From IMG/VR virus record IMGVR_UViG_2609459792_000007: a stretch of 64,000 nt of DNA; one strand, given 5' to 3'. Source of the stretch: a virus. Its lineage: Duplodnaviria > Heunggongvirae > Uroviricota > Caudoviricetes. Positions 46,938-58,748 of the stretch are shown in pieces. A model generated the notes under the pieces. That model was not told the origin of the DNA. It made no database searches and saw only the letters and a program-made list of their open reading frames with translations. The translations under genes and the position numbers were made by a program. Each line of letters starts with the position of its first letter. Within the stretch, counting starts at the first letter, position 1.

Positions 46938-47705
46938 TTATGCCGCGCTAACACTATGTTCAGTCCTAACCACCCCAACCTTCACAAAAGGGCTACCGTA
47001 GCTTGGTGGCTTCTTGATTAATTTGCCTACATACAGTTTTCTAATATGCTCATCGGCTATTCTGCCAACAAATTCATATCGTTTTGTGTCGGGGCCAAGA
47101 GCTATATCCCTTGTAAAGTACTGCTGAGAACCGGCTTTGACCCAGCATTCAATCTGATAAACTTCCATTATTAGCCCACCATATGTAGCGTAGGCATATT
47201 TGAGATTCTCGTCTCTTGGAACCTTTGCCCATACGCCACGCGTAGCTTCATATAATGCCAGAGCGGACATTCCTGATTTGTAGGTGCTGTTTAGCAGGAA
47301 GGCAAGACCGGCGTGCTCAGGAGCAATTTCAGTTTCCTCTTGCAGCACTAAGTGATGGTAGGCGTCCAGTGATATTCTGCCCATCATGGAACCACTTCCT
47401 CGAACCTTATTCGTAAGCTCTCCGACCCCCATAAGGTCGATGCATGTCGCCTCAACAAGTTTGGCTGTGGTTTCATCCATACCATGACGAAGAATATCTA
47501 TGCCTAATTTTTTATTAGCCAAAAGTTCTTTGATCCGCATGGATTTGGGAGAGTCATCGGGATACTTGATGTGATCGAGACAACGAGTCGATTTGCCTTT
47601 TCCTATGTAAAACGGTCTTTTCATCTTGTCTTCTGTATCATAGAGACAGTAAACATAGTATTTAGCCTTATCCAAGGATCTCGCGTATACCGATAAATCG
47701 TCCAT
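46938..47705 (-). CDS. GIY-YIG nuclease domain protein
   Basis: N-terminal YYVYCLY ... FYIGKGK motif. Confidence 0.6.
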   Translation of the reverse strand: MDDLSVYARSLDKAKYYVYCLYDTEDKMKRPFYIGKGKSTRCLDHIKYPDDSPKSMRIKELLANKKLGIDILRHGMDETTAKLVEATCIDLMGVGELTNKVRGSGSMMGRISLDAYHHLVLQEETEIAPEHAGLAFLLNSTYKSGMSALALYEATRGVWAKVPRDENLKYAYATYGGLIMEVYQIECWVKAGSQQYFTRDIALGPDTKRYEFVGRIADEHIRKLYVGKLIKKPPSYGSPFVKVGVVRTEHSVSAA

Positions 47706-47816
47706 TATTGCATCTCTTAGCTACTGACTAATGCGTTCTATTTTACACATAAGTTTTTAATCAATTTAACAGGCTCAAAGTGTAGAGCTTCTGGGCGTCT
47801 AAGACGACAAGTTATG

Positions 47817-47871
47817 CCTGCTTCTGTATATATAAATAATAAGTAACTTATTAAATATATACGGAAGCAGG
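47817..47871. repeat. 55-bp imperfect palindromic element, copy 2
   Basis: Identical to copy at 15012 except one base (cctgcTtctg vs cctgcAtctg). Confidence 0.8.
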
Positions 47872-47952
47872 TCTTTTAAAAGACACCACCAGAACAACTC
47901 CCTTCCGTTTCCACTTCCAAAAACTGCCACCAGTCGCTATCATCCGCTCATT

Positions 47953-47976
47953 GTGATAAGTAAGTAACTACCTACC
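47953..47976. promoter_or_regulatory. family B motif GATAAGTAAGTAAC
   Basis: About 25 nt upstream of the 47988 gene. Confidence 0.45.
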
Positions 47977-47987
47977 AGGTGAGCCAC

Positions 47988-48728
47988 ATGAGCCAAATCT
48001 TTTTCGATACCATCGACAACGACCAGTACGACTTCATGACAGAGTGGAATACCGCTGTTATGGACAAGTGGGTCGCTGAAAACATTGGTTTGTCGCGCTG
48101 TAAAGACGAGGCTGAACTCTTCGAGACGAAGTGGTTTGATTACCGCGACATGCATCCTCTCATGGCCACCTGTCTTTTTACGGAGGCATACAAACGTCAG
48201 TACTCAAATATCATGCTGACGCACGGTCGCGAACACTTTGAAACAGCTCCGTTCACCACCGGGTTAAAACGCCTGCCTTATCAGGAGTTGTCGACTGCCA
48301 ATAAAACGTCGCTATGGAAAGCACGCCAGTTTGCGGATCGCTATTGCTGCTCATACGACTATTTTATCTCCACCGTTCTTTCCGCAGCTGCACGACGGCT
48401 GTGGGACAAGCTGCCGCGCCCACAGCATTTATGGCAGCCAGAGCTGGTTGAGATATTCGAAGAGAAATTAGCCAGACGCGCAACAACCCGTCTGGATGAC
48501 TCTCTGGTTAGTTTTAAGCATATGGGAGACATGCAGTTCAACCCGATTCAGGAAAGCTATTTTGAGTGGATTCTGGAGCGTTTACGCGCCATCCCCCGCA
48601 GCAAGCGCATACGCGCAATTTTCTCCGCTATCTGGCTAATGGAAATCGTTCCAGAGCGCCTTATTTCCGCCCACTTTCCAGAAGAACTGGAAGAAGCACG
48701 GCGGTTTATTGATCCCCTATCTAATTAA
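47988..48728 (+). CDS. hypothetical protein upstream of replicative helicase
   Basis: ATG 47988 with RBS aggtgag; position suggests a replication accessory role. Confidence 0.55.
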   Translation: MSQIFFDTIDNDQYDFMTEWNTAVMDKWVAENIGLSRCKDEAELFETKWFDYRDMHPLMATCLFTEAYKRQYSNIMLTHGREHFETAPFTTGLKRLPYQELSTANKTSLWKARQFADRYCCSYDYFISTVLSAAARRLWDKLPRPQHLWQPELVEIFEEKLARRATTRLDDSLVSFKHMGDMQFNPIQESYFEWILERLRAIPRSKRIRAIFSAIWLMEIVPERLISAHFPEELEEARRFIDPLSN

Positions 48729-48737
48729 CTAATACTA

Positions 48738-48753
48738 GAAAACAATTTGTTTA
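48738..48753. promoter_or_regulatory. family A operator GAAAACAATTTGTTTA upstream of helicase gene
   Basis: Dyad followed by RBS aaaggaaag. Confidence 0.55.
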
Positions 48754-48771
48754 AAAAACAAAGGAAAGCAC

Positions 48772-50112
48772 ATGACCGAACTTTGCCATACAGGACGCGG
48801 GCTGTCCGAAGAGTTTGATGAAGATTTCCAGAACAGACTGACGGCATATTTTTGTCGTGATCACGAGTTTCTTACTCGTGCGGGAGATCTGGTTGTGCCT
48901 AGCCAATTTGCCAATGCGGCCAATGCCATATTGGTTAATATGGTTTCGGGCTATTACCGTATGTACAAGAGCGCGCCCTCTTCATCTGCAATTCTGGATA
49001 TGCTTAAGCGTGCGAAACGCGATAAGACTATCCGTGAGGAACTATTCGCCGATGTTGTTGCTGCGTTTAAGCGCATCCTTGCAGAAAAATTGTCCGATAC
49101 CTCGTACATGGTTGACCAGGTATCAACCTTCGCAAAAAGCGTAGCGTTTGATGATGCTCTGATTAAGGCTGCTGAACTGAAAGAGAAAGGCGACTTTCAG
49201 GGGGCGATGGCAATCATGGCCAAGGTTCAGCAGATTGGATCGAACGAAGCGACCGGAATCTATGACTACTACACCTCCGCAAGTGAGCGATTGAAAGCGC
49301 GTGAATATGAGGCTTCAGAGGAGTATGTGCCAAACAGCATTACAACTGGACTCCCTCTGCTCGATAGGTTGCTGTACCAAAAAGGCTGGGCGAAGCGTGA
49401 AATGGTGCTCTTCATGGGGTTCGCTAAATCCGGTAAATCGACCGCAATGGGTGAGTTTTCCATAAACGCAACGCTTGCTGGCTACAATGTTCTGTATCTC
49501 TCGCTGGAGGTTCACACCAACATTTTGTCCGACCGTTTTGATGCAAGATTGTCGGAGACGGAAATGTCCAAGTTGGTGGAACGGCGCGATGAAGTTCATC
49601 GTAAGTTGGCAGAGTTGGGAGCCTCTAAGGGGATTGGTAGTTTGTGGGTTGTTGAGCGTCCGTCAGGAAGTATGTCACCGGCAGATCTGGACCGTATGCT
49701 TAACAGCATGAAAGCCAACGGCATGGTGCCTGACATGGTTGTTGTCGACTACGCAGATTTGATGCGTGCCAGTTATGACCTTCGTGATGATCGCGCCAAC
49801 ATTCGTAGTATCTACACCGATTTACGTGCTCTTTATGACAAGCATAACGTTGCTGGTATCACGGCGTCGCAAACAAACCGTGAAGGTGGCGCGTCAGAAG
49901 TTGCCACAATGATGCACGCTGCCGACAACATCGAAAAAGTACGTATTGCTGACCTGGTAATAACGATCAACAAAACCGAAGAAGAAGAAGCGAAAGGAGA
50001 GGCTCGTCTCTACTTTGCTGGTTCGCGTAACCAGCAGGGAGGGATCAGCATTCGCGTTAAACAAAACCTCGAACAAATGCGCTTCATTGAGCGGATCTTA
50101 GACGTTACCTAA
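48772..50112 (+). CDS. DnaB-family replicative helicase
   Basis: RecA-like C-terminal domain with Walker A GFAKSGKST and Walker B VVVDYADLM. Confidence 0.75.
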   Translation: MTELCHTGRGLSEEFDEDFQNRLTAYFCRDHEFLTRAGDLVVPSQFANAANAILVNMVSGYYRMYKSAPSSSAILDMLKRAKRDKTIREELFADVVAAFKRILAEKLSDTSYMVDQVSTFAKSVAFDDALIKAAELKEKGDFQGAMAIMAKVQQIGSNEATGIYDYYTSASERLKAREYEASEEYVPNSITTGLPLLDRLLYQKGWAKREMVLFMGFAKSGKSTAMGEFSINATLAGYNVLYLSLEVHTNILSDRFDARLSETEMSKLVERRDEVHRKLAELGASKGIGSLWVVERPSGSMSPADLDRMLNSMKANGMVPDMVVVDYADLMRASYDLRDDRANIRSIYTDLRALYDKHNVAGITASQTNREGGASEVATMMHAADNIEKVRIADLVITINKTEEEEAKGEARLYFAGSRNQQGGISIRVKQNLEQMRFIERILDVT

Positions 50113-50121
50113 AAAATAAGC

Positions 50122-51375
50122 GTGGAGAACACCTCCACGCTTGATTCATTGGTGAAACAACTTTTCTTTTGCCAAACCACAAAAGAAAAACACATGAGCC
50201 TTTATGTTATATCAACATTTAGGTTGGTCACAATATTGCCTGTTAAAAGTGGAATTATCGTGAGCGAGCTGAAAGAGCTAATTACCGAATTAGATTTTGA
50301 ACAATGGTTGGACACTGAAGGTATCGTTTATCGACGTGGAGGCGTGAGTGCTCGCGGTCGTGAAGTGAATATCAAGGAGTGTCCGGTATGCGGCAGCTCC
50401 AACTGGAAGGTATATTTCAATCTGACCAGTGGCGTCGGCAAATGCTTTGCTGGTGATCATCCCGAAGAGATTCAGTTCAATAAGCTGGTCTTCCTCAAGC
50501 ACTACAGCGGTAAATCACGACGACAGTTCGAGGAATATGTGCAGAACGCTCTTCTTTCCCAGGGGTGGGCACCAAAGAAAGAAGAGCTAGTGCTTGCAAG
50601 CACAGTCGAGTTAGAGGGGCCAGTTGCACTCCCTCGTCATTACGAGCTTCCTATAGATGGCCGTCTTCCAGACTATCTGGTTGAACGAAACATATCACCT
50701 GAAATGGCAAAGTATTTTGACCTACGATACTGCGTCGAAGGCAAGCACGCTTATGTAGATCCGTATACAGATCAGGTAAAAGGGCAGATATTCGATATGC
50801 GAGTACTGATACCGGTTTACGATCTGGATGGGGTAATGAAGACATTTCAGGGACGAGACATTACCGGTACAGCAGAACGCCGCTACCTCTTTCCTATGCA
50901 GCTTCCAGCTTCAGGTAAATTTCTCTACAACGGCCATAATGCAGTCGGCAAACAGACTGTAGTTGTCTGTGAGGGTGCGTTCGATGTTATGGGGGTCAAA
51001 CGAGCTATTTTCGACGAAGAAACATTACGTGATTACGTGGAGCCAATAGGAACGTTCGGGATGCATCTATCTGGTAACACCACTCAGGATGCAGAAGATC
51101 AGTTAGGCGCGTTCCTGACGCTCAAGGCGCGTGGGTTACGTAATGTGATCATGATGTGGGATAGTGAAAAGCAAGCTATACGCAACACTATGGCCGCAGC
51201 CAGGCGACTGACCAGTATCGGTCTTAATGTCAAAGTTGCGTGTTTGGGTGAGGAAGGACTCGACCCGGGCGGTGCAACGCCAGAACAAATTATCAAAGCC
51301 TATTATCGGGCAAAACCGTATACCAAACAGTTGGAGTTGCAAAGCAAGGTTTTGGGCATTAAGGCGCTATCGTAA
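50122..51375 (+). CDS. DNA primase (zinc-binding plus TOPRIM)
   Basis: CPVCGSS...KCF zinc-ribbon-like segment and TOPRIM-like VVVCEGAFD; start codon uncertain. Confidence 0.7.
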   Translation: MENTSTLDSLVKQLFFCQTTKEKHMSLYVISTFRLVTILPVKSGIIVSELKELITELDFEQWLDTEGIVYRRGGVSARGREVNIKECPVCGSSNWKVYFNLTSGVGKCFAGDHPEEIQFNKLVFLKHYSGKSRRQFEEYVQNALLSQGWAPKKEELVLASTVELEGPVALPRHYELPIDGRLPDYLVERNISPEMAKYFDLRYCVEGKHAYVDPYTDQVKGQIFDMRVLIPVYDLDGVMKTFQGRDITGTAERRYLFPMQLPASGKFLYNGHNAVGKQTVVVCEGAFDVMGVKRAIFDEETLRDYVEPIGTFGMHLSGNTTQDAEDQLGAFLTLKARGLRNVIMMWDSEKQAIRNTMAAARRLTSIGLNVKVACLGEEGLDPGGATPEQIIKAYYRAKPYTKQLELQSKVLGIKALS

Positions 51376-51386
51376 CAAGTGCCGCT

Positions 51387-51410
51387 AAAATAAGTAGATG
51401 ATTACTTATC
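51387..51410. promoter_or_regulatory. family B motif, reverse orientation
   Basis: aataagtagatgattacttatc. Confidence 0.45.
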
Positions 51411-51450
51411 TTTCTGTAAGAATACTTTCATCTGTTAGCTAGGAGTTGGT

Positions 51451-52233
51451 ATGAAAGACGAAATTCACAAATTAGCCTGCGACATCATTGATAAAACTGG
51501 TTTAGAAATCAGCGAGAGCAATCGACTAGACATCATTGAAAAAGCGGTAAAAACAGCAATGGATCATATCGCCACTCGTTTGGTTGAGATCCCGCTACCA
51601 GGGCTACCTTATCTGAAAGTTGAGTTACACGTATGGGGTGAACCTTCTTGTGCACGGCGTTCTGCATTAGTTGTTTTTATTAGCAAAGAAAACCCGCTCA
51701 GTCTTAAAGTGCAGGTTGGTGCATGGATGGATGGCAAAGTGATCTACACAAATACCGTTTTTTGTGCGCCAAACGACAGTATTATTGAAGAGGCTATTCA
51801 GGAATCACTTCTAACTATGCATAGCTTAGTTTTGCTGGAAGACAAGCAAAACTACGAAGAGTACTTACGGTCGATAAAAGGTGAGAGAACATTGTCACTT
51901 AGAGCCGATTTCGTTACCCCGACAAACCTGTTGGAAGTCTTGCTTAATAAAGGGGCTAATGATGCCGTAAATGTAATCAGAGAGAGTGAGTATGCGTCTC
52001 TTTGCGACATGTGCAAAAGCCAGTTGGATCTGGTGCATATCGTTATTGATGCTGGGAAGGCATGTGATGGCGTAATGGCGGAATTTGCTGGGAAGATGGT
52101 CAGGATTGCTAACGAATTACCGATGATAGAGCAAGAGGCTAAATCATACGCCACCAATCATGTCACAGAGCTTCTTGTCCCCTATCGCTTAGAAAGCAAT
52201 CAGCGCAAGATGATTAGCTGGGGAAGTTGGTAA
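51451..52233 (+). CDS. hypothetical protein (260 aa)
   Basis: ORF with RBS aggag. Confidence 0.55.
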   Translation: MKDEIHKLACDIIDKTGLEISESNRLDIIEKAVKTAMDHIATRLVEIPLPGLPYLKVELHVWGEPSCARRSALVVFISKENPLSLKVQVGAWMDGKVIYTNTVFCAPNDSIIEEAIQESLLTMHSLVLLEDKQNYEEYLRSIKGERTLSLRADFVTPTNLLEVLLNKGANDAVNVIRESEYASLCDMCKSQLDLVHIVIDAGKACDGVMAEFAGKMVRIANELPMIEQEAKSYATNHVTELLVPYRLESNQRKMISWGSW

Positions 52234-52265
52234 TCTCTCCGCGCGTCGTTTTTTTACGCAAACAA

Positions 52266-52285
52266 TGATAGGTAAGTACAAGATT
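52266..52285. promoter_or_regulatory. family B motif GATAGGTAAGTAC
   Basis: Ends about 12 nt before the ATG of the 52290 gene. Confidence 0.45.
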
Positions 52286-52289
52286 ATTT

Positions 52290-52772
52290 ATGGCGATAGT
52301 TGTGAAAGCTGATTTGTCAAAAATCCCCTCTATTTCAGGAAATAATGGTTATTCACTTCGTTGTGAGGAAGTAAAGATAAACGGTGAGTCGGCATATTGC
52401 AGTTACTCCGTTTGCCAGCACACCATTCTTGCCTTCAAAGAAAACCGTCTTCCTCGAACTTCTTTCCAGTCGTGCGCAACCGCTATTAAAGCAGGCAAAT
52501 GCAAGGCGTTAAAAATGATGGTTGAAGAGATTCGTAAAGGAGAATCTCTGTATTTCGAAGATATGACCGCACTCATTAAGGAGGTTGAAGAACGGAATAA
52601 ACAAGCCAGAACTATAAAACGAAAACGTGACAGTGTAACGATTAATAGCATGGTTAAGAAGAGCGCCACATCACAAACAGCGATCACTGACGTGTATGCG
52701 GCGTTGCTTGAAGAAACAACAAAAGAAACACATGAGCAAATCGATCAACATATGGAGGCAAAACAACAATGA
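52290..52772 (+). CDS. hypothetical cysteine-containing protein
   Basis: ORF between primase and ligase genes. Confidence 0.5.
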   Translation: MAIVVKADLSKIPSISGNNGYSLRCEEVKINGESAYCSYSVCQHTILAFKENRLPRTSFQSCATAIKAGKCKALKMMVEEIRKGESLYFEDMTALIKEVEERNKQARTIKRKRDSVTINSMVKKSATSQTAITDVYAALLEETTKETHEQIDQHMEAKQQ

Positions 52773-54091
52773 AAAAGTTGATCGCACTTAAGCATAAGCT
52801 GGACGAAATGAAAGCTATGGGAACCAATGCAAAAAAAGAGGCATTGGCCAACATGGATGACTTTGAACAAAGCATGGTTTCATTGATGCTCAACCCTTTC
52901 ATCCGTTTTGGGGTAAAGAAATACAAAGTGGCAGAGCCGCTTAGTGAGTCCGTCCCAAGTGACGAAAAAGCCATTGATGTACTGAATAAGCTGGCCTCTC
53001 GCGAGCTGACGGGGAACGCAGCAATAGTTGCTGTTGAGTCTATCGTAGCGTCAATGTGCGCCGATGGGCAGGACGTGTTCCGTCGTTTCCTCTTAAAAGA
53101 CCCGAAAGCAGGTGTTGGGATTAGCCTATGCAACAAGGTTTTTGAGAATCCCATTCCGAAATTCGAGGTGCAGCTGGCGTCACCGTATAAAGAAAAAGGC
53201 GACAAATACCCCTTCAAGCCAAATCCTAAAGCAAAATGGCCGATGATTGGCAGTCTTAAGCTCGATGGTTTGCGAGTAATTTGCGAGGTTATTGTTGACG
53301 AGGAAGAGGTTAACTTCCTTTCTCGTACTGGTAATCCAATCACGTCTCTCGATCACCTAAAGCCAGCAATGCTCGAATTAGGCAAACTTTCAGGCCACAA
53401 ACACATCTTCTTCGATGGTGAAGGAACAGCCGGTTCATTTAACCAGTCCGTATCTGCATTGCGCAAAAAGAACGTGCAGGCAATTGGCGCTATTTATCAT
53501 GTTTTCGACTTCTTCCTACCGGAATGGCGGGCACAGGCTAAATCCAAAGAGTATGCAAAGACAGGTATGAAGCTGAAAGAGCGCCTGGCTATGCTGGTGG
53601 CGTTGTTCAAAAACGATCGCAGTGAAGGCTACGGACAAGACATTCACCTGCATCCGTTCTATATCATCCATAGCCACGAAGATTTCATCGAACGCTTTAT
53701 GAAACGCCTGGACGATAACGAAGAAGGGGAGATGGGCAAAGATCCGAACTCTGTTTACGAGTTTAAACGTACCCGCAGCTGGTGGAAGTTAAAAGACGAA
53801 GATTCAGAAGATGGTGAAATTATCGACTTTGAGCCGGGCGACCCGGACTCTGGTTTTGCCAACACACTTGGAAAAATTGTTATTCGTCTTGAAAACGGCG
53901 TCATCGTTCGTGCGAGCGGCATTAAGCATAAATATCTGGACGAGATCTGGAACAACAAAGAGAAGTACCGTGGTCGTATTGTTGAGGTTCATTGTCACGA
54001 GAAAACGCCGGATGGCAGCTTACGCCACCCACGACTGAAATGGCCGCGTTGCTTACGCGATACAGAAGATCGAATCGGAGATAAAGAATGA
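52769..54091 (+). CDS. ATP-dependent DNA ligase
   Basis: Adenylation motif KLDGLR (SLKLDGLRVICEV) and downstream nucleotidyltransferase-like motifs. Confidence 0.8.
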   Translation: MKKLIALKHKLDEMKAMGTNAKKEALANMDDFEQSMVSLMLNPFIRFGVKKYKVAEPLSESVPSDEKAIDVLNKLASRELTGNAAIVAVESIVASMCADGQDVFRRFLLKDPKAGVGISLCNKVFENPIPKFEVQLASPYKEKGDKYPFKPNPKAKWPMIGSLKLDGLRVICEVIVDEEEVNFLSRTGNPITSLDHLKPAMLELGKLSGHKHIFFDGEGTAGSFNQSVSALRKKNVQAIGAIYHVFDFFLPEWRAQAKSKEYAKTGMKLKERLAMLVALFKNDRSEGYGQDIHLHPFYIIHSHEDFIERFMKRLDDNEEGEMGKDPNSVYEFKRTRSWWKLKDEDSEDGEIIDFEPGDPDSGFANTLGKIVIRLENGVIVRASGIKHKYLDEIWNNKEKYRGRIVEVHCHEKTPDGSLRHPRLKWPRCLRDTEDRIGDKE

Positions 54092-54267
54092 TGCTCGGCT
54101 GGATGATTGCATTTTTAGCGGTTGGTTTTTTAATCGGTATTGTGGTGATGTCCAGTTGCATCAATGACTACATTAAAAGCGGTGTTATAGAACGACGCGG
54201 TCGTATTTATCGCATTGTAGAAATAACCCACACAGTGAAGGAGATTAAGGATGATCGTATTAAGTAA
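54088..54267 (+). CDS. small membrane protein (59 aa), not in ORF track
   Basis: ATGA overlap with ligase stop; N-terminal TM helix; C-terminal RIYRIVEIT resembles the ORF at 54463. Confidence 0.35.
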   Translation: MMLGWMIAFLAVGFLIGIVVMSSCINDYIKSGVIERRGRIYRIVEITHTVKEIKDDRIK

Positions 54268-54466
54268 GCGGGAGAAGGAAACGCTTCATGAAATCAGTAA
54301 GTGGCCGGAGTTCCCTGAGTACTGGAAGCCTAAAACGCGGGCTAAGTTAGAGCGGTTAGGGTTGGTTGCAAACGTTTCTGAAACGTGGTGTTCGGCCAAC
54401 TACCAGTTAACTGATAAAGGGAAAGTATTGCTACAGCAATTAGTAGAATCAGGAGCGTTAAAATGA
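54251..54466 (+). CDS. hypothetical protein (71 aa)
   Basis: ORF with RBS gaaggag. Confidence 0.45.
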   Translation: MIVLSKREKETLHEISKWPEFPEYWKPKTRAKLERLGLVANVSETWCSANYQLTDKGKVLLQQLVESGALK

Positions 54467-54615
54467 TTCCATACATCTCATTAGCTTTTATGGGTGGCTT
54501 CCTTATTGGCTTCGGCATCTGTCGTGATTTAATTAAGCAGGAACTTAAAACCAAAACACTGTGCATCGGAAAGCGTGTGTATCGGGTAGTTCATGAAACA
54601 AAGGTTAGAAAATGA
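54463..54615 (+). CDS. small membrane protein (50 aa), paralogue-like, not in ORF track
   Basis: RBS aggagcg; starts with the ATGATTCCATACATC word; TM helix then RVYRVVHET. Confidence 0.35.
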   Translation: MIPYISLAFMGGFLIGFGICRDLIKQELKTKTLCIGKRVYRVVHETKVRK

Positions 54616-54902
54616 GCAATTTAACTTCTTGGGACTGGTGGTTGGTCACCTATTTCTTAGCGGCTGGAGTAGCATTCGCCTTTTACGTAGGTCAGTTAGT
54701 CGTAAAACTGTTGCTGATTAAATTTGCTAGTCATAAACGTATCGATGATGGTCTGTGGCGTCTTGGCACCTTGGTGGAAACTCGCTACGGGCAACTTAAG
54801 GAGAACGAAACCATTACTATCCAAGCGAAACGATTCACTGCCACCATCACAAGAACACCTAGTCGTAGAGTGGCCTTGATCAAAAAAGTCACAACCGAAT
54901 AA
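54612..54902 (+). CDS. membrane protein (96 aa)
   Basis: N-terminal TM helix WWLVTYFLAAGVAFAFYV. Confidence 0.45.
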   Translation: MSNLTSWDWWLVTYFLAAGVAFAFYVGQLVVKLLLIKFASHKRIDDGLWRLGTLVETRYGQLKENETITIQAKRFTATITRTPSRRVALIKKVTTE

Positions 54903-54910
54903 AAATACAA

Positions 54911-54933
54911 TGATAAGTATTTACTTACTTATC
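54911..54933. promoter_or_regulatory. family B motif GATAAGTA-N7-ACTTATC
   Basis: Inverted GATAAGT arms at the start of the structured region before the tRNAs. Confidence 0.45.
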
Positions 54934-55681
54934 TTATATGTATAAGATGACTTTGTTTTCGTTGAGACGCGACTGTTTGAACTTAAATACAAGTGCAAAC
55001 GAAGAAGTCTATCTGGCAGTAGCCTAATAAGCCAAACACCAGCGAGGTCAGTTTCCAGCCTCGTTACCGAAATGGGACACACTGAGCGAGTGTGATTGCA
55101 GAACGCAGGAGGGAACATTCATGTTCCCTCCGATGAAGTAACAGAATGGGCGGTTGGTATATTTTCAACTCCATATGACTCCCGGATTCTTAGCCACTGA
55201 CCGCCCATTCTGTTACGTCATTTTGTTCAATTATGTCGTTTATACTGGGTTAAAAAGCGGCGACGTAGCCCGGCTGGTATGGTCAGCCAGCACACAACGT
55301 TGAGGCCATTACATTTTTATCAATTCTAAGGTTCTATTCACAGAGATACCGGCGAGCGTTGATATGTAACATGTTGGGCAAACATTCAATCGGAGTAGTG
55401 GCCTCAACGTTGTGAAAATAGGATAGTTGTGTAGGTTTAACCACTGTTGCCATTGGTACCTGTTTTCACAACAAATGATTCCATACATCACATTGTATAA
55501 ATTACAAAGTAGGTGCTGTCCTCAGAAACATCATCTACTTAAATAATTTGCCTTCTACTATTGAGCGAAGTCGAAAGCGTCTGGCACTAACGAAAAGTGC
55601 AAGTAGCGGTGCGTTTCCTGGCAGAAACTAACACCGCCGCGATTGGCACTGTTGAGTAATAAATACTGGCAGTGCTGAATT

Positions 55682-55756
55682 GATGGTGTAGCTCAGCGGT
55701 AGAGCAGTTGGCTGTTAACCAACTGGTCGGTGGTTCGAATCCACCCACCATCGCCA
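55682..55756 (+). tRNA. tRNA-Asn (anticodon GTT)
   Basis: Manual cloverleaf: acceptor gatggtg/caccatc, D arm gctc-agcggta-gagc, anticodon loop ctGTTaa, T loop ttcgaat. Confidence 0.85.
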
Positions 55757-55761
55757 ATTTA

Positions 55762-55848
55762 GGGGAGTTAGTCCGTAGAGGTAGCGGGGTAGACTGTAAA
55801 TCTACTGTCATGGAGACTCGGGTGGTTCGACTCCATCACTCCCCACCA
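55762..55848 (+). tRNA. tRNA-Tyr (anticodon GTA), long variable arm
   Basis: Acceptor ggggagt/actcccc, anticodon stem-loop gtaga-ctGTAaa-tctac, long variable arm, T loop ttcgact, 3' CCA. Confidence 0.7.
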
Positions 55849-55852
55849 AATT

Positions 55853-55928
55853 GCCGGTTTAGCTCAGTTGGTAGAGCGCCTGCCTTGTAAGCAGGATGTC
55901 AGCGGTTCGAGTCCGTTAACCGGCACCA
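55853..55928 (+). tRNA. tRNA-Thr (anticodon TGT)
   Basis: Acceptor gccggtt/aaccggc, D arm gctc-agttggta-gagc, anticodon loop ctTGTaa, T loop ttcgagt, 3' CCA. Confidence 0.8.
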
Positions 55929-56152
55929 ATACAACGATAAGATCATTACGGTTAATCGTCGTTCATGTGCACAATGACTGGTCGAAAGGTAGTGATCTTA
56001 CCGTTGTGGTGGATTCGCAGACTGATGCGATAGCTTTCTTGGATGTTAGGGAAATGCGGCCGCAAATCTTCCCTTTCGCGAGCGGTGATCGTCCGTAGTC
56101 CTAATTGGCTGCACCGTATGCCGGAGATTCAGTACCGGCCACCACAACGGCC

Positions 56153-56239
56153 GGAGAGTAGGGAGCATGGTGCTCAAGCGGTCTTGAAAACCGTCCCATT
56201 GCGCAAGCGATGATGGTTCGATTCCATTACTCTCCGCCA
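56153..56239 (+). tRNA. tRNA-Ser (anticodon TGA), long variable arm
   Basis: Acceptor ggagagt/actctcc, anticodon stem-loop gcggt-ctTGAaa-accgt, long variable arm, T loop ttcgatt, 3' CCA. Confidence 0.7.
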
Positions 56240-56396
56240 GACACAGCGTTGAGCGGTTTGGCCTTTTAATCAACTCGATTAAGACTCCGCTAACATAAAC
56301 CAGACCGCTCAACGCTGTGATAGACAATTACGGCAGACGTTCTTAACCATAGCTTGCTAACATCCTAGCAACACTTTTTTTCAGCGCAAAATTCAA

Positions 56397-56423
56397 AGGG
56401 GCTTCGGCCCCTTTTTTGCAACT
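56397..56423 (+). terminator. rho-independent terminator after tRNA cluster
   Basis: aaaggggc-ttcg-gcccctttt followed by ttgc. Confidence 0.85.
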
Positions 56424-56460
56424 GAAAGAGTCAAGTCTACGAACTTTGTAGGGAGAAATA

Positions 56461-56811
56461 ATGACCAGCAAAGAGAACACACCACTAAAAGTCACCCCTG
56501 AACACATTGAACAACTCATTCAAAGTGAACATTATTTCACTGCATATGATGCCAGCCACGGGGATAACTTCATCTCTGTTTACAATTCAAAAACAGATAT
56601 CGACAAAGGTCATGAGTCGTTAAAACTCTTAACGTTCTGCGTTATGGTTCTCAAAAATGGATATACCGTAACGGGAAAATCTGCGTGCGTAAGACCAGAA
56701 ATCTTCAACTTTGATGTTGGTCGTGAGTACGCTCGAAAAGATGCTATCGATCAAATCTGGCCCCTGGAAGGCTATCTCCTGAAGCAAAAGTGGCATGAGG
56801 CAAAGCAATGA
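56461..56811 (+). CDS. hypothetical protein (116 aa)
   Basis: ORF with RBS gggagaaataATG; coupled to glutaredoxin gene. Confidence 0.5.
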   Translation: MTSKENTPLKVTPEHIEQLIQSEHYFTAYDASHGDNFISVYNSKTDIDKGHESLKLLTFCVMVLKNGYTVTGKSACVRPEIFNFDVGREYARKDAIDQIWPLEGYLLKQKWHEAKQ

Positions 56812-57053
56812 CGATCACTATCTACGGACGAGATAACTGCTCATACTGCAAACGTGCGGTCGAGCTGGCGAAGCAACTAAAGGGACATGGCTACGGTGAT
56901 TATGAGTACATAGACATCACCACTGCCGGTATCGACAAGAAAAAACTAAGTGAAATTGTTGGTAAACCGGTAGAGACTATCCCCCAAGTACTGATCGATG
57001 GTCAACCGATTGGCGGATACACAGAACTGGCTGCATACGTCAGCACCCTCTGA
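56808..57053 (+). CDS. glutaredoxin-like (NrdH-type) redox protein
   Basis: CSYC active-site motif near N-terminus; 81 aa. Confidence 0.75.
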   Translation: MTITIYGRDNCSYCKRAVELAKQLKGHGYGDYEYIDITTAGIDKKKLSEIVGKPVETIPQVLIDGQPIGGYTELAAYVSTL

Positions 57054-57131
57054 TTTTAACGGCTCACAGGAGCCGTTTTTATTACCACCAAACTCACTCC
57101 CATTTCCCTTAAAATTCAAAAAACAACGTCA

Positions 57132-57164
57132 AAATGATTCCATACCTACTATGTATGGAATCAT
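57132..57164. other. candidate site-specific recombination site: perfect 13-7-13 inverted repeat
   Basis: AATGATTCCATAC-ctactat-GTATGGAATCATT, 100 bp upstream of tyrosine recombinase gene. Confidence 0.55.
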
Positions 57165-57217
57165 TAGTGAAAATGAGTTACTTTTACTCTTGATCCTATA
57201 AGAATCTATGCCTAATA

Positions 57218-57237
57218 TACTGTTTACTTATACAGTG
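57218..57237. promoter_or_regulatory. LexA-box-like sequence upstream of recombinase gene
   Basis: TACTGT-ttacttat-ACAGTG fits CTGT-N8-ACAG; 27 bp upstream of ATG 57264. Confidence 0.45.
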
Positions 57238-57263
57238 AATCGGCGTAACTCGGTGATTGTCAT

Positions 57264-58367
57264 ATGAAAAATAGCTTTGACAGAGCACGCGCTGCGGAGA
57301 ACACCTCAAAAGAGGCGATTGAGTATCTCGAAAGAGCATCTCAAATGCAGGCCGTTATGATCTCGCAGGTTAGCATTGATATGAGATTCTCGGACGCATT
57401 CATGTTATTCACTCGCTTATCTCTGCTGATAACCAGACGTCGGCCAGAGATCGCTGTTCATTGTATTTTGATACATGTTTTGCCGCACATTGCCGATGTA
57501 AAAGTAAGTGACATTAATAGGTTCATGGTGAACCAGCTGGTCAACCCACTAATACTGGATGGCAAAATTGTTATGGGCCGCCGCGTTTTCTCTCTGATGA
57601 AACAGTTCCTTAGCTGGTGCGCCTTCCAGGGGATGATAGACGTGTCACCGTTAAACGATATGTCACTAAACAAAGTTGCCGGTGGCGCAAAGCCCACACC
57701 TCGCGAGCGGAAGCTGACCGACGCAGAGGTATGGGTGTTCTGGAATATATGGGACTACTTCAATGTGTGCGCTGGTACAAAATGGGCGGCCAGGCTGTGT
57801 CTTGTATCAGCAAGACGACCTGACGAAGTACTGCGGGCTAAAAAAAGTGAGTTCAATCTTAAGCGTGGGGTTTGGAATCAAGGCAAGAGAAACAAGTCAG
57901 CACGTGAGCATTCGCTGCCTTTAAGCACATTAATGCGCACATGCATTGAAGAGTTGTTCGAATACGGTAAAGACAGCCAGTGGCTCGTGCCTTCGAATAA
58001 AAAAATCGGGAAAGACCTTCCTATGTCTAAAGTGGCAATAGCCCAGGCATTACGTCGTATTCTGGAACGACCAGAACTGATGGAGCTTGAGCCATTTACA
58101 CCCCGAGATTTGCGCCGTACTGCGCGTAGTTACTTCCCAGCATTAGGCATAAGCCAGGAGGTATCACGCAAAATCATGAACCACAGTCTTGAGGGGATAG
58201 ATCGGGTCTACGACCGGCACGATTATATGGACGAGATGCGAGACGCCTTAGAAAGTTTCTCGACGTACATCGCATCAATCGTAGAGCAACCGGATTTAGA
58301 CGAAATTGACCACAAATTCAAGGGAGATCGTCTATCAACAGAGCTTATTCGTGTAAATTTTTCATAG
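57264..58367 (+). CDS. tyrosine recombinase / integrase family protein
   Basis: C-terminal catalytic-domain-like residues (ARRPDE, DLRRTARSY, MNHS, RVYDRHDY). Confidence 0.7.
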   Translation: MKNSFDRARAAENTSKEAIEYLERASQMQAVMISQVSIDMRFSDAFMLFTRLSLLITRRRPEIAVHCILIHVLPHIADVKVSDINRFMVNQLVNPLILDGKIVMGRRVFSLMKQFLSWCAFQGMIDVSPLNDMSLNKVAGGAKPTPRERKLTDAEVWVFWNIWDYFNVCAGTKWAARLCLVSARRPDEVLRAKKSEFNLKRGVWNQGKRNKSAREHSLPLSTLMRTCIEELFEYGKDSQWLVPSNKKIGKDLPMSKVAIAQALRRILERPELMELEPFTPRDLRRTARSYFPALGISQEVSRKIMNHSLEGIDRVYDRHDYMDEMRDALESFSTYIASIVEQPDLDEIDHKFKGDRLSTELIRVNFS

Positions 58368-58748
58368 AGACTTTATGGCCTCAACAACCTTTTGTGATGC
58401 GCCTTTCTCTTTACCGAATCGCTCGTTATACGCAGCAAGAACCTGTTTTTCGTCCTCGTTAAGAGGAGCGGTGCCTTCTTTGTATAAAAATGCTGCGAGT
58501 TCAGGTTGGCGTTCTTCCAGCACCATCATCATAAGACGACTTGGTTCAATACCCAGCGCCAGCGCCAGCGGACGAACCTTATCGATAGGCAAAGGAATTT
58601 TGCCACTTTTAATTAAAGAAAGGTTGTTGGCATTTTTATAACCAATAAGTCTGGCTATTTGGGCCTGACTCATAGGTGAGGATTCAATCAGCCCTGCGAT
58701 AAAAGCAGCATAGCGACTTTCTATAAATTCAATCTTGTTGTCAGACAT
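58362..58748 (-). CDS. XRE-family helix-turn-helix transcriptional regulator
   Basis: HTH-like segment SQAQIARLIGYKNANNLSLIKSGK in a 128-aa protein. Confidence 0.7.
   Translation of the reverse strand: MSDNKIEFIESRYAAFIAGLIESSPMSQAQIARLIGYKNANNLSLIKSGKIPLPIDKVRPLALALGIEPSRLMMMVLEERQPELAAFLYKEGTAPLNEDEKQVLAAYNERFGKEKGASQKVVEAIKSL

Follow-up and report, generated by a model that had tools for sequence, protein, structure and literature searches.

The window analysed here, a 64,000-nucleotide (nt) stretch of the IMG/VR virus record IMGVR_UViG_2609459792_000007, carries directly downstream of an ATP-dependent DNA ligase gene a cluster of four short open reading frames (ORFs), which we call ORF1 to ORF4 (Table 1). 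ORF1, ORF3 and ORF4 are predicted to encode small membrane proteins, and we refer to the two smallest, ORF1 and ORF3, as the miniproteins. The nucleotide identity of region 53900-55100 shows that the window belongs to an SSU5/pHCM2/pMT1-type phage-plasmid: the region matches Escherichia phage CMS-2020a, phage Cyrano (pLF82) and an E. albertii plasmid with 98-99% identity, and Salmonella phage SSU5, S. Typhi pHCM2 and Y. pestis pMT1 with ~77-78%. The original prediction, made from the letters of the window, had placed three ORFs for membrane proteins here, and ORF1, ORF3 and ORF4 are present exactly where it put them. It had called the first two unlisted; they do fall below the cutoff of the ORF list, for which 60 residues is the only reason, but in SSU5 (SSU5_045-048), pHCM2 and pMT1 all four ORFs are already annotated as hypothetical proteins, in the same order after the ligase. 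Its description of a cluster of small single-helix membrane proteins was correct but overlooked ORF2, which lies between the miniproteins. Likewise, ORF1 is real, but the start kept in relatives is the second ATG (54091) and not 54088. Each of the four PHROG matches spans the whole profile, and all four families are without assigned function. The databases already list these genes as hypothetical proteins, and small phage membrane proteins are a familiar kind.

Table 1. Ligase, ORF1-ORF4 and palindromic sites in the window
Feature	Coordinates	Strand	Remarks
ATP-dependent DNA ligase, 440 aa	52769-54091	+	phrog_114, E 2e-125; PF01068, E 1e-12
ORF1, predicted single-pass membrane miniprotein, 59 aa (58 aa from ATG 54091)	54088-54267	+	phrog_4381, E 7.9e-39
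ORF2, soluble protein, probable winged helix-turn-helix, 71 aa	54251-54466	+	phrog_4054, E 1.1e-45
ORF3, predicted single-pass membrane miniprotein, ORF1 paralog, 50 aa	54463-54615	+	phrog_6302, E 8e-37
ORF4, predicted bitopic membrane protein, 96 aa	54612-54902	+	phrog_4507, E 1.4e-58
Palindrome TAAGTAACTACCTA, copy of TAAGTA-NN-TACTTA	47961-47974		just 5' of the first gene of the replication block
Palindrome TAAGTA-NN-TACTTA, another copy	54914-54927		12 nt past the ORF4 stop
All palindrome sites, 14 nt each (first position)	4255, 11782, 18576, 24071, 30572, 37485, 47961, 54914, 61438		at most 1 mismatch

Every start from ORF1 to ORF4 has a Shine-Dalgarno-like motif 7-10 nt on its 5' side. 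The ligase stop and the ORF1 start overlap as TGATG, a junction (...GGAGATAAAGAATGATG) that is kept in relatives; ORF1 and ORF2 overlap by 17 nt, and the ORF2/ORF3 and ORF3/ORF4 overlaps are ATGA each. The ATGA/TGATG start-stop overlaps and the Shine-Dalgarno signals are retained even in the distant loci L018, L020 and L023. Judging by this arrangement, ORF1-ORF4 are co-oriented and translationally coupled with the ligase. The ratio of nonsynonymous to synonymous substitution rates (dN/dS), obtained with SSU5, pHCM2, pMT1 and Klebsiella/Escherichia plasmids, relatives in which synonymous sites are near saturation, was 0.08-0.20 for ORF1, 0.12-0.20 for ORF3 and 0.06-0.09 for ORF4. For ORF2 the synonymous sites are saturated, and the differences by codon position are ~19/11/36. 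Changes at third positions are in excess in the ORF comparisons. Conservation of the frames in relatives had been set beforehand as the test on which the ORFs could fall, and the frames are kept, with dN/dS of 0.06-0.20. The substitution pattern indicates that all four ORFs are genuine genes under purifying selection.

The cluster lies at one end of a replication block. On the + strand the order is a gene of unknown function (phrog_2500, 47979-48728), a DnaB-like helicase, a primase, two unknowns, the ligase and ORF1-ORF4, and these lie before a cluster of four transfer RNA (tRNA) genes (55682-56239). The palindrome TAAGTA-NN-TACTTA has nine distinct sites in the window, compared with 0.06 expected. 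Nearly all of them fall between genes, a short way 5' of a block of + strand genes, and at times right after a terminator-like hairpin. The copies at 47961 and 54914 bracket exactly the block from the helicase to ORF4, and the columns of the 54914 copy are invariant across eight diverged relatives. A second palindrome, ATCTTATA-TG-TATAAGAT, is found next to it at 54930-54947. The dispersed palindrome looks like the operator/promoter element of a genome-wide regulon, for which the dispersed C1 operators of P1 offer a comparison; the helix-turn-helix repressor (58362-58748, - strand) and ORF2 are candidate binders. The site at 47961 is probably the operator/promoter heading the unit that ends with ORF4, and that at 54914 marks, by its position, the end of this unit and heads the next one, which holds a structured RNA described below and the tRNA genes. 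Simple scans found no convincing + strand terminator or sigma-70 promoter inside 47500-56500, and a simple consensus scan, the only one applied, gave no promoter-like site on either strand at 54000-54900. Because of the bracketing palindromes and the lack of an internal terminator or promoter, the cluster is most likely the 3' end of a ~7 kb replication operon.

ORF1, ORF3 and ORF4 each have one hydrophobic N-terminal segment (best 19-residue Kyte-Doolittle means of 2.60, 1.84 and 2.00, respectively), and this strong hydropathy, together with the long helices modelled by AlphaFold2, bears out the claim of one membrane helix per protein. In ORF1 the helix spans residues ~7-25 with G13xxxG17, and the tail, which includes RIYRIVEIT, carries an invariant R39-x-Y41-R42 inside RRGRIYRIVEIT. 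In ORF3 the helix spans residues ~2-20 with G12xxxG16, and the tail is GKRVYRVVHET, of which GKRVYRVVHE is invariant. The common basic tail motif that had been proposed is therefore found in both proteins, as RIYRIVEIT in ORF1 and as RVYRVVHET in ORF3. Among the six-frame ORFs of at least 25 residues in the window, the pattern R[IVLF]Y[RK][IVL][IVA] matches only these two.

The suggestion that ORF1 and ORF3 are paralogs is confirmed by several comparisons. BLASTP aligned them with E=2e-5 and 33% identity over 45 residues. Shuffles in which the helix and the tail were permuted separately gave p ~0.0008, and the tails alone only p ~0.05. The ORF1-family and ORF3-family profiles aligned end-to-end in hhalign with 85% probability and E 6e-6, and a MAFFT merge of 28 sequences from both families required no internal gaps. 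In this merged alignment M2, R39, Y41 and R42 never vary, and G13, G17 and T47 hardly do. Both families follow a colinear plan: a short N-terminus, a GxxxG helix, a ~14-residue linker and R-x-Y-R-[IV]-[IV]-x-x-T. Moreover, an exhaustive profile search of 1.84 billion representative proteins returned 22 matches only, clear intermediates among them. P0117 (MMIPYI...RRRVYRVVEIT) joins an ORF3-type head to an ORF1-type tail, P0112 (...IKSGIVRFGNRVYRVVHET; ...DWIKQDIKSGIVRFGNRVYRVVHET) joins an ORF1-type linker to an ORF3-type motif, and P0111 and P0123 are further intermediates. A 238-residue protein with three motif matches (P0125) was rejected as a relative, since it seems to arise from repeat DNA that was translated spuriously. 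Homologs of ORF1 form 36 protein clusters, the named ones all from Enterobacteriaceae, and homologs of ORF3 form 32. These alignments show that phrog_4381 and phrog_6302, kept separate in the databases, are one family; the merging of the two, with its GxxxG plus R-x-Y-R signature, is new.

In the ORF1, ORF3 and ORF4 families lysine and arginine are essentially nil before the helix, and 2.9-4.2 of them occur in the following 15 residues; the whole tails are net positive, +2 to +6. Since these residues are skewed to the side after the helix, we infer from the positive-inside rule that in all three proteins the N-terminus lies outside and the C-terminus in the cytoplasm. Within the miniproteins, constraint is strongest on the tail motif and not on the helix, with a column identity of 0.93-0.96 for the motif versus 0.83 (ORF1) and 0.61 (ORF3) for the helix. 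For ORF1, from the merged alignment, AlphaFold2 modelled a helix at 3-30 (predicted local distance difference test, pLDDT, 81-94), a beta-hairpin at 34-37/40-43 with its turn at the conserved R37-G38, at low confidence (pLDDT ~57-64), and a short helix at 45-55. The R-x-Y-R motif may thus form a cytoplasmic beta-hairpin, a model of low confidence. Near the ORF1 C-terminus, E52, D55 and D56 are also conserved, and the C-terminal end is unconserved in relatives without the ORF1/ORF2 overlap. Because these residues are encoded over the ribosome-binding site and the ATG of ORF2, their conservation need not reflect ORF1 function. Foldseek found no match in BFVD at E<=0.001 for the models of ORF1/ORF3 and ORF4, a PDB sequence search with the ORF1/ORF3 profile gave noise only, and Pfam, NCBIfam and PADLOC scans of the four proteins gave nothing above threshold.

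ORF4 is indeed the third membrane protein in the cluster, with an N-terminal helix, but it has no detectable homology to the miniproteins. We tried it as a third paralog and rejected it, the hhalign probabilities being 0.4% and 1.2% and the shuffle p values 0.1-0.7. Its membrane helix carries a conserved G19/A23/G27, and its basic cytoplasmic domain an invariant KRIDDxLWRLG; both GxxxG and G/A-zipper patterns are classic helix-packing motifs. The AlphaFold2 model of ORF4 is poor (pLDDT 59.9) and has the membrane helix, a second helix and a hairpin. An ORF4-like gene lies directly after a miniprotein gene in every relative examined, including the distant L016, L018, L020 and L023, and the ORF4-like proteins of distant relatives match the ORF4 profile with E of 1e-17 to 7e-4. 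In NCBI and PLSDB records its homologs, including SSU5_048, are widely named 'C-type natriuretic protein'. Pfam and NCBIfam contain no natriuretic-peptide family match for ORF4 at E<=1, and the name appears to be a propagated mis-annotation. A 106-residue protein from a Logan contig (P0099) joins in frame the N-terminal half of ORF4 (to ...DDGLWRLGSLLE) to the C-terminal half of the homolog of 56461-56811, whose product in the window is an N4 gp49/Sf6 gp66-family protein; the fusion implies a natural deletion that took out the tail of ORF4 together with the structured RNA and the tRNA genes.

The matches of ORF2 are weak and all to winged-helix proteins: HTH_45 with E 0.16, the Csa3 C-terminal winged-helix domain with E 0.0015 and, in the PDB, PA1607/HxlR and TubR with E ~0.7, aligning the ..Y.LT.KG.. 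wing. Its Cyrano homolog is annotated as 'putative transcriptional regulator'. These matches suggest that ORF2 is a probable winged-helix protein.

The miniprotein family is confined to SSU5-like elements of ~100-110 kb in Enterobacterales. Among 50,697 phage records 10 carry ORF3, and all of them are SSU5-like. Relatives, the distant ones being elements of ~104-112 kb, show three architectures. In L016 and L023 the ligase is followed by one miniprotein and the ORF4-like gene; in L020 two adjacent miniproteins precede the ORF4-like gene; and in the window, SSU5, pHCM2, pMT1 and L018 the two copies are split by ORF2. The overlap with the ligase is retained in all three. The constant pairing of the miniprotein with ORF4 and with the ligase, as read from these arrangements, is new. 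Identity to relatives is 63-79% for the miniproteins and ORF4, compared with 84-91% for the ligase. In PLSDB, tblastn found the ligase, ORF4, ORF3 and ORF1 in 758, 653, 682 and 532 records, respectively. In the same order, the counts were 49, 48, 49 and 49 for Salmonella, 43 for each of the four genes in Yersinia and 23 for each in Citrobacter, 91, 90, 89 and 86 for Enterobacter, 220, 218, 218 and 139 for Escherichia, and 287, 210, 241 and 178 for Klebsiella.

Cyrano, ~98% identical to the window here, resides as a lysogen in E. coli LF82, and this one strain and one data set provide the expression evidence. In the RNA sequencing of an overnight lysogeny broth culture, the ligase (CYRAN_36) and the ORF homologs CYRAN_37-39 were at or near the floor of fragments per kilobase per million (FPKM), with FPKM of 0 for CYRAN_38 and ~0-3 for CYRAN_37 and CYRAN_39 (PMC9928086 Table S1). 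Normalised read counts for CYRAN_36-39 were ~5-8 (floor 4.99), compared with ~96 for the repressor and ~7000 for CYRAN_43, and CYRAN_36-39 are not among the listed lysogen-expressed 'morons' (PMC9928086). The cluster thus behaves like lytic replication genes and not like a lysogenic-conversion or immunity function. Since its homologs are silent in the LF82 lysogen, like the ligase, an immunity or exclusion role expressed from the prophage is unlikely, and this argument against a prophage-expressed role is new. Searches by locus tag, by accession, for 'C-type natriuretic protein' with plasmid and for pHCM2 ligase/membrane protein found no published literature on these genes, and the Klebsiella p2 paper makes no mention of ligase, membrane proteins or exclusion (PMC8969562).

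We tentatively propose that in the lytic phase the cluster forms a platform in the inner membrane to which a cytoplasmic partner, perhaps the replication machinery, is held; we regard this as possible, and as short of probable. The module would consist of inner-membrane proteins co-translated with the ligase at the 3' tail of the lytic DNA-replication operon. ORF1 and ORF3 would be paralogous anchors, with about five residues outside, a GxxxG helix and a basic cytoplasmic tail bearing G-[KR]-R-[IV]-Y-R-[IV]-[IV]. ORF4, bitopic but unrelated to them, would contribute a G/A-zipper helix and a basic cytoplasmic domain of its own; it is always encoded directly after a miniprotein and is their likely membrane partner. 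After induction, the helices would pack into a hetero-oligomer, and the Arg/Tyr-rich hairpins would then capture the partner on the cytoplasmic side of the membrane. This partner would most plausibly be the phage DNA or a replisome/ligase component, with the probable winged-helix protein ORF2 assisting, and the outcome would be the localisation of lytic replication at the membrane, as with p16.7 and p1 of phi29. In this specific form, with ORF1/ORF3 and ORF4 as a dedicated platform recruiting the lytic replisome, the ligase or the phage DNA and the R-x-Y-R hairpin as a new capture element, the proposal is unlikely. We infer the topology, the hairpin, the contact between ORF1/ORF3 and ORF4 and, above all, the identity of the partner.

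As part of the same proposal, the platform could do in enterobacterial siphophages what p16.7/p1 do in phi29, as their functional analog, which we consider doubtful to the same degree. Both phi29 proteins organise replication at the membrane; they are small, membrane-anchored and early or replication-associated, and their cytoplasmic parts bind DNA or replication proteins (PMC4974454). The window proteins resemble them in their N-terminal anchors, their basic cytoplasmic tails and the position of their genes inside a replication operon. However, they share no sequence or fold similarity with the phi29 proteins, and phi29 replicates by protein priming in a Gram-positive host. Moreover, p16.7 has ~130 residues and a defined dimeric DNA-binding domain, unlike the tails of the window proteins, which are only ~25-60 residues long.

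Several observations weigh against the platform. No homology to p16.7, p1 or any characterised protein was found in PHROG, Pfam, NCBIfam, PADLOC, PDB or BFVD, the hairpin model is of low confidence, and that of ORF4 is poor. Nature can dispense with ORF1, which is missing from about one third of such Escherichia plasmids (139 carry it, compared with 218 for ORF3 or ORF4), and L003 has a precise 163-nt deletion of ORF1 that re-creates a ligase/ORF2 overlap. In some Klebsiella plasmids the module is degraded, with a truncated ORF1 or ORF3 and a replaced ORF4 N-terminus. Finally, because relatives carry accessory and anti-defence genes just downstream (NinH-, Lar-, Tad2-like and Acb2/Tad1-hairpin genes within a few kb, in the metagenomic relatives L016, L018 and L023), the cluster could be an accessory host-interaction module merely riding on the operon.

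Another possibility is host takeover, in which the miniproteins and ORF4 would target a protein of the host inner membrane, such as a transporter, a protease or part of the divisome, bind it by packing of their helices against it and by the cytoplasmic hairpin, and inhibit or redirect it in lytic growth. SPO1 gp56 and Caulobacter SidA are examples of small membrane proteins that inhibit division. The conservation of GxxxG in both paralog families and the G19/A23/G27 zipper of ORF4 are consistent with this, and genes that are dispensable, lineage-specific and faster-evolving than the ligase are typical of host interaction; expression with the early/replication genes rather than in the lysogen also fits. 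However, PHROG and Pfam show no homology to known inhibitors, the helix is the least conserved part of ORF3, a poor fit to a specific helix-helix target, and the coupling with the ligase is conserved in all relatives. We consider this reading unlikely.

Superinfection exclusion or immunity, with the membrane proteins blocking the DNA entry of incoming related phages, is among the roles that the original prediction had put forward. T4 Imm and Sp and P22 SieA are small phage inner-membrane exclusion proteins, and synthesis of the two T4 proteins starts early in the lytic cycle. The window proteins are likewise small, phage-encoded and predicted to lie in the inner membrane; such proteins are classic exclusion agents, expression in the lysogen is not strictly required, and the family is lineage-specific. 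They differ from Imm, Sp and SieA in lacking homology to them and in that the window homologs are not expressed from the resident prophage-plasmid, being silent in LF82 while the repressor and the listed lysogen-expressed genes are active. The conserved determinant is predicted to be cytoplasmic, ORF1, ORF3 and ORF4 match no Sie, Imm or Sp family and no PADLOC model, and they have no lipobox ([LVI][ASTVI][GAS]C behind a basic N-terminal region), so they are not lipoproteins of the Llp/Cor type. A lipoprotein reading (T5 Llp, phi80 Cor type) had been tried for ORF1 from the ..SSC.. in ..VMSSC.. and was rejected: position -1 before C24 varies (S, I, R), ORF1 has no N-terminal lysine/arginine region, and ORF3 has no equivalent Cys. 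An exclusion role is, in our opinion, rather unlikely.

Counter-defence, with the membrane proteins neutralising a membrane-associated abortive-infection or other defence effector of the host, seems very unlikely. The Tad2-like, Acb2/Tad1-hairpin and Lar genes downstream in relatives and the accessory, variably present nature of the cluster would suit it, but this neighbourhood is its sole argument. The conserved link is with the upstream ligase and not with the downstream island, which differs between relatives, and no similarity to known anti-defence proteins was seen.

Highly improbable is that these are type I toxin-, holin- or pinholin-like peptides that depolarise the membrane. They are short and hydrophobic, with Gly-zipper-like helices, and ORF4 has a weak holin match (phrog_2359, E 0.042) that covers the helix only (residues 8-34), as is typical of a composition-driven match. 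Like Hok/Gef, which are plasmid-borne single-helix peptides of ~50 residues, the miniproteins are small; unlike them, they have no PF01848 match (Pfam, E<=1), no match to another toxin family and no mok-type or antisense-RNA arrangement, and in place of a dedicated promoter they are coupled inside a long operon. A Hok-like reading of ..TLCIGKR.. was also rejected, since the Cys residues and flanks are unconserved; Cys24, where the helix ends, is conserved in ORF1 only, no Cys is conserved in ORF3, and a conserved periplasmic Cys pair is lacking. Moreover, conservation is higher in the soluble tail than in the helix, the cluster has ligase, primase, helicase and tRNA genes around it and not an endolysin, and a depolarising pore made alongside replication proteins would be counter-productive. 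Overall, the coupling to the replication operon, the silence in the lysogen, the constraint on the tail and the lack of any toxin, holin or defence family match do not favour the immunity, exclusion and toxin roles originally suggested, although the proteins may exert exclusion in the lytic phase or be toxic on over-expression. Finally, the view that the ORFs are spurious, the spacer 3' of the ligase being non-coding and open by chance, could draw on their shortness and on annotations that omit ORF1 (Cyrano) or ORF3, but it is effectively refuted by the dN/dS result, and the third-position excess, the invariant motifs and the frames, starts and ribosome-binding sites kept at 54-78% protein identity and beyond also speak against it, leaving it a negligible probability.

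The region between ORF4 and the tRNA cluster contains an unannotated non-coding element of ~340 nt, 54960-55299 (+ strand), with conserved flanks (54913-55489). Its identity to SSU5, pHCM2, pMT1 and Klebsiella plasmids is 78-81%, compared with 70-77% for the neighbouring coding DNA, and its identity to L022/L023, where the proteins have diverged much further, is 72.6%. The consensus fold comprises 15 helices with 97 pairs in all (95.7% of cells paired), and 22 pairs show compensatory changes versus 3-7 in slid controls, a number reached by 0 of 500 shuffles. Because many invariant G-U pairs are present, the RNA would be that of the + strand. No Rfam family matches the element, and the only hit, at 54976-55078, is a sub-threshold one resembling transfer-messenger RNA (17.3 bits). 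The element may be a new RNA of phage-plasmids or a leader to the tRNA transcript, or may instead be a single-stranded DNA origin structure. An inverted repeat with 20-nt arms (55293-55312/55395-55414) overlaps the 3' end of the closing helix, and therefore alternative folds or a second RNA domain are possible; another, with 14-nt arms, lies at 55409-55422/55459-55472. At 56152-56239 ARAGORN predicts a tRNA-Ser (anticodon TGA), for which the best Rfam model is tRNA-Sec with 46.6 bits (threshold 47), a score that probably reflects the long variable arm of class II tRNAs.

The region 3' of ORF4 is a variable cargo site in relatives. In pMT1 caf1R, of the F1 capsule operon, lies ~500 nt past ORF4 (L004 2134-2404), and the number of tRNA genes varies, with four in the window, three in Cyrano and one in SSU5. 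Further on, CYRAN_43 (L001 6030-6584, - strand) is a hypothetical gene between glutaredoxin and integrase, ~700-fold above background in the LF82 lysogen. The window has no counterpart of it at 57053-57264, where the next gene after glutaredoxin (56808-57053) is the integrase (57264-58367), and the E. albertii plasmid pEA11_2 has a different gene, of 420 codons, in the equivalent region, which makes it another variable cargo slot.

The miniproteins and their partners are a real but ordinary uncharacterised family, and the present work is a sound annotation and lead-generation result that brings no surprise. Phage-plasmids of the SSU5/pHCM2/pMT1 type are very common in clinical Escherichia, Klebsiella, Salmonella, Enterobacter and Yersinia pestis, and with more than 650 PLSDB plasmids carrying ORF3 and ORF4 the module is a conserved, uncharacterised part of them. 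There is a gain for annotation, as ORF1 or ORF3 is often missed and ORF4 wears a spurious name, and the GxxxG and R-x-Y-R elements offer a defined motif for mutagenesis. If the proteins neither tether replication to the membrane nor manipulate a host membrane complex, the cluster would be an ordinary lineage-specific accessory module. If they do either, the lytic programme of these elements, which has been little studied, would gain a further mechanism.

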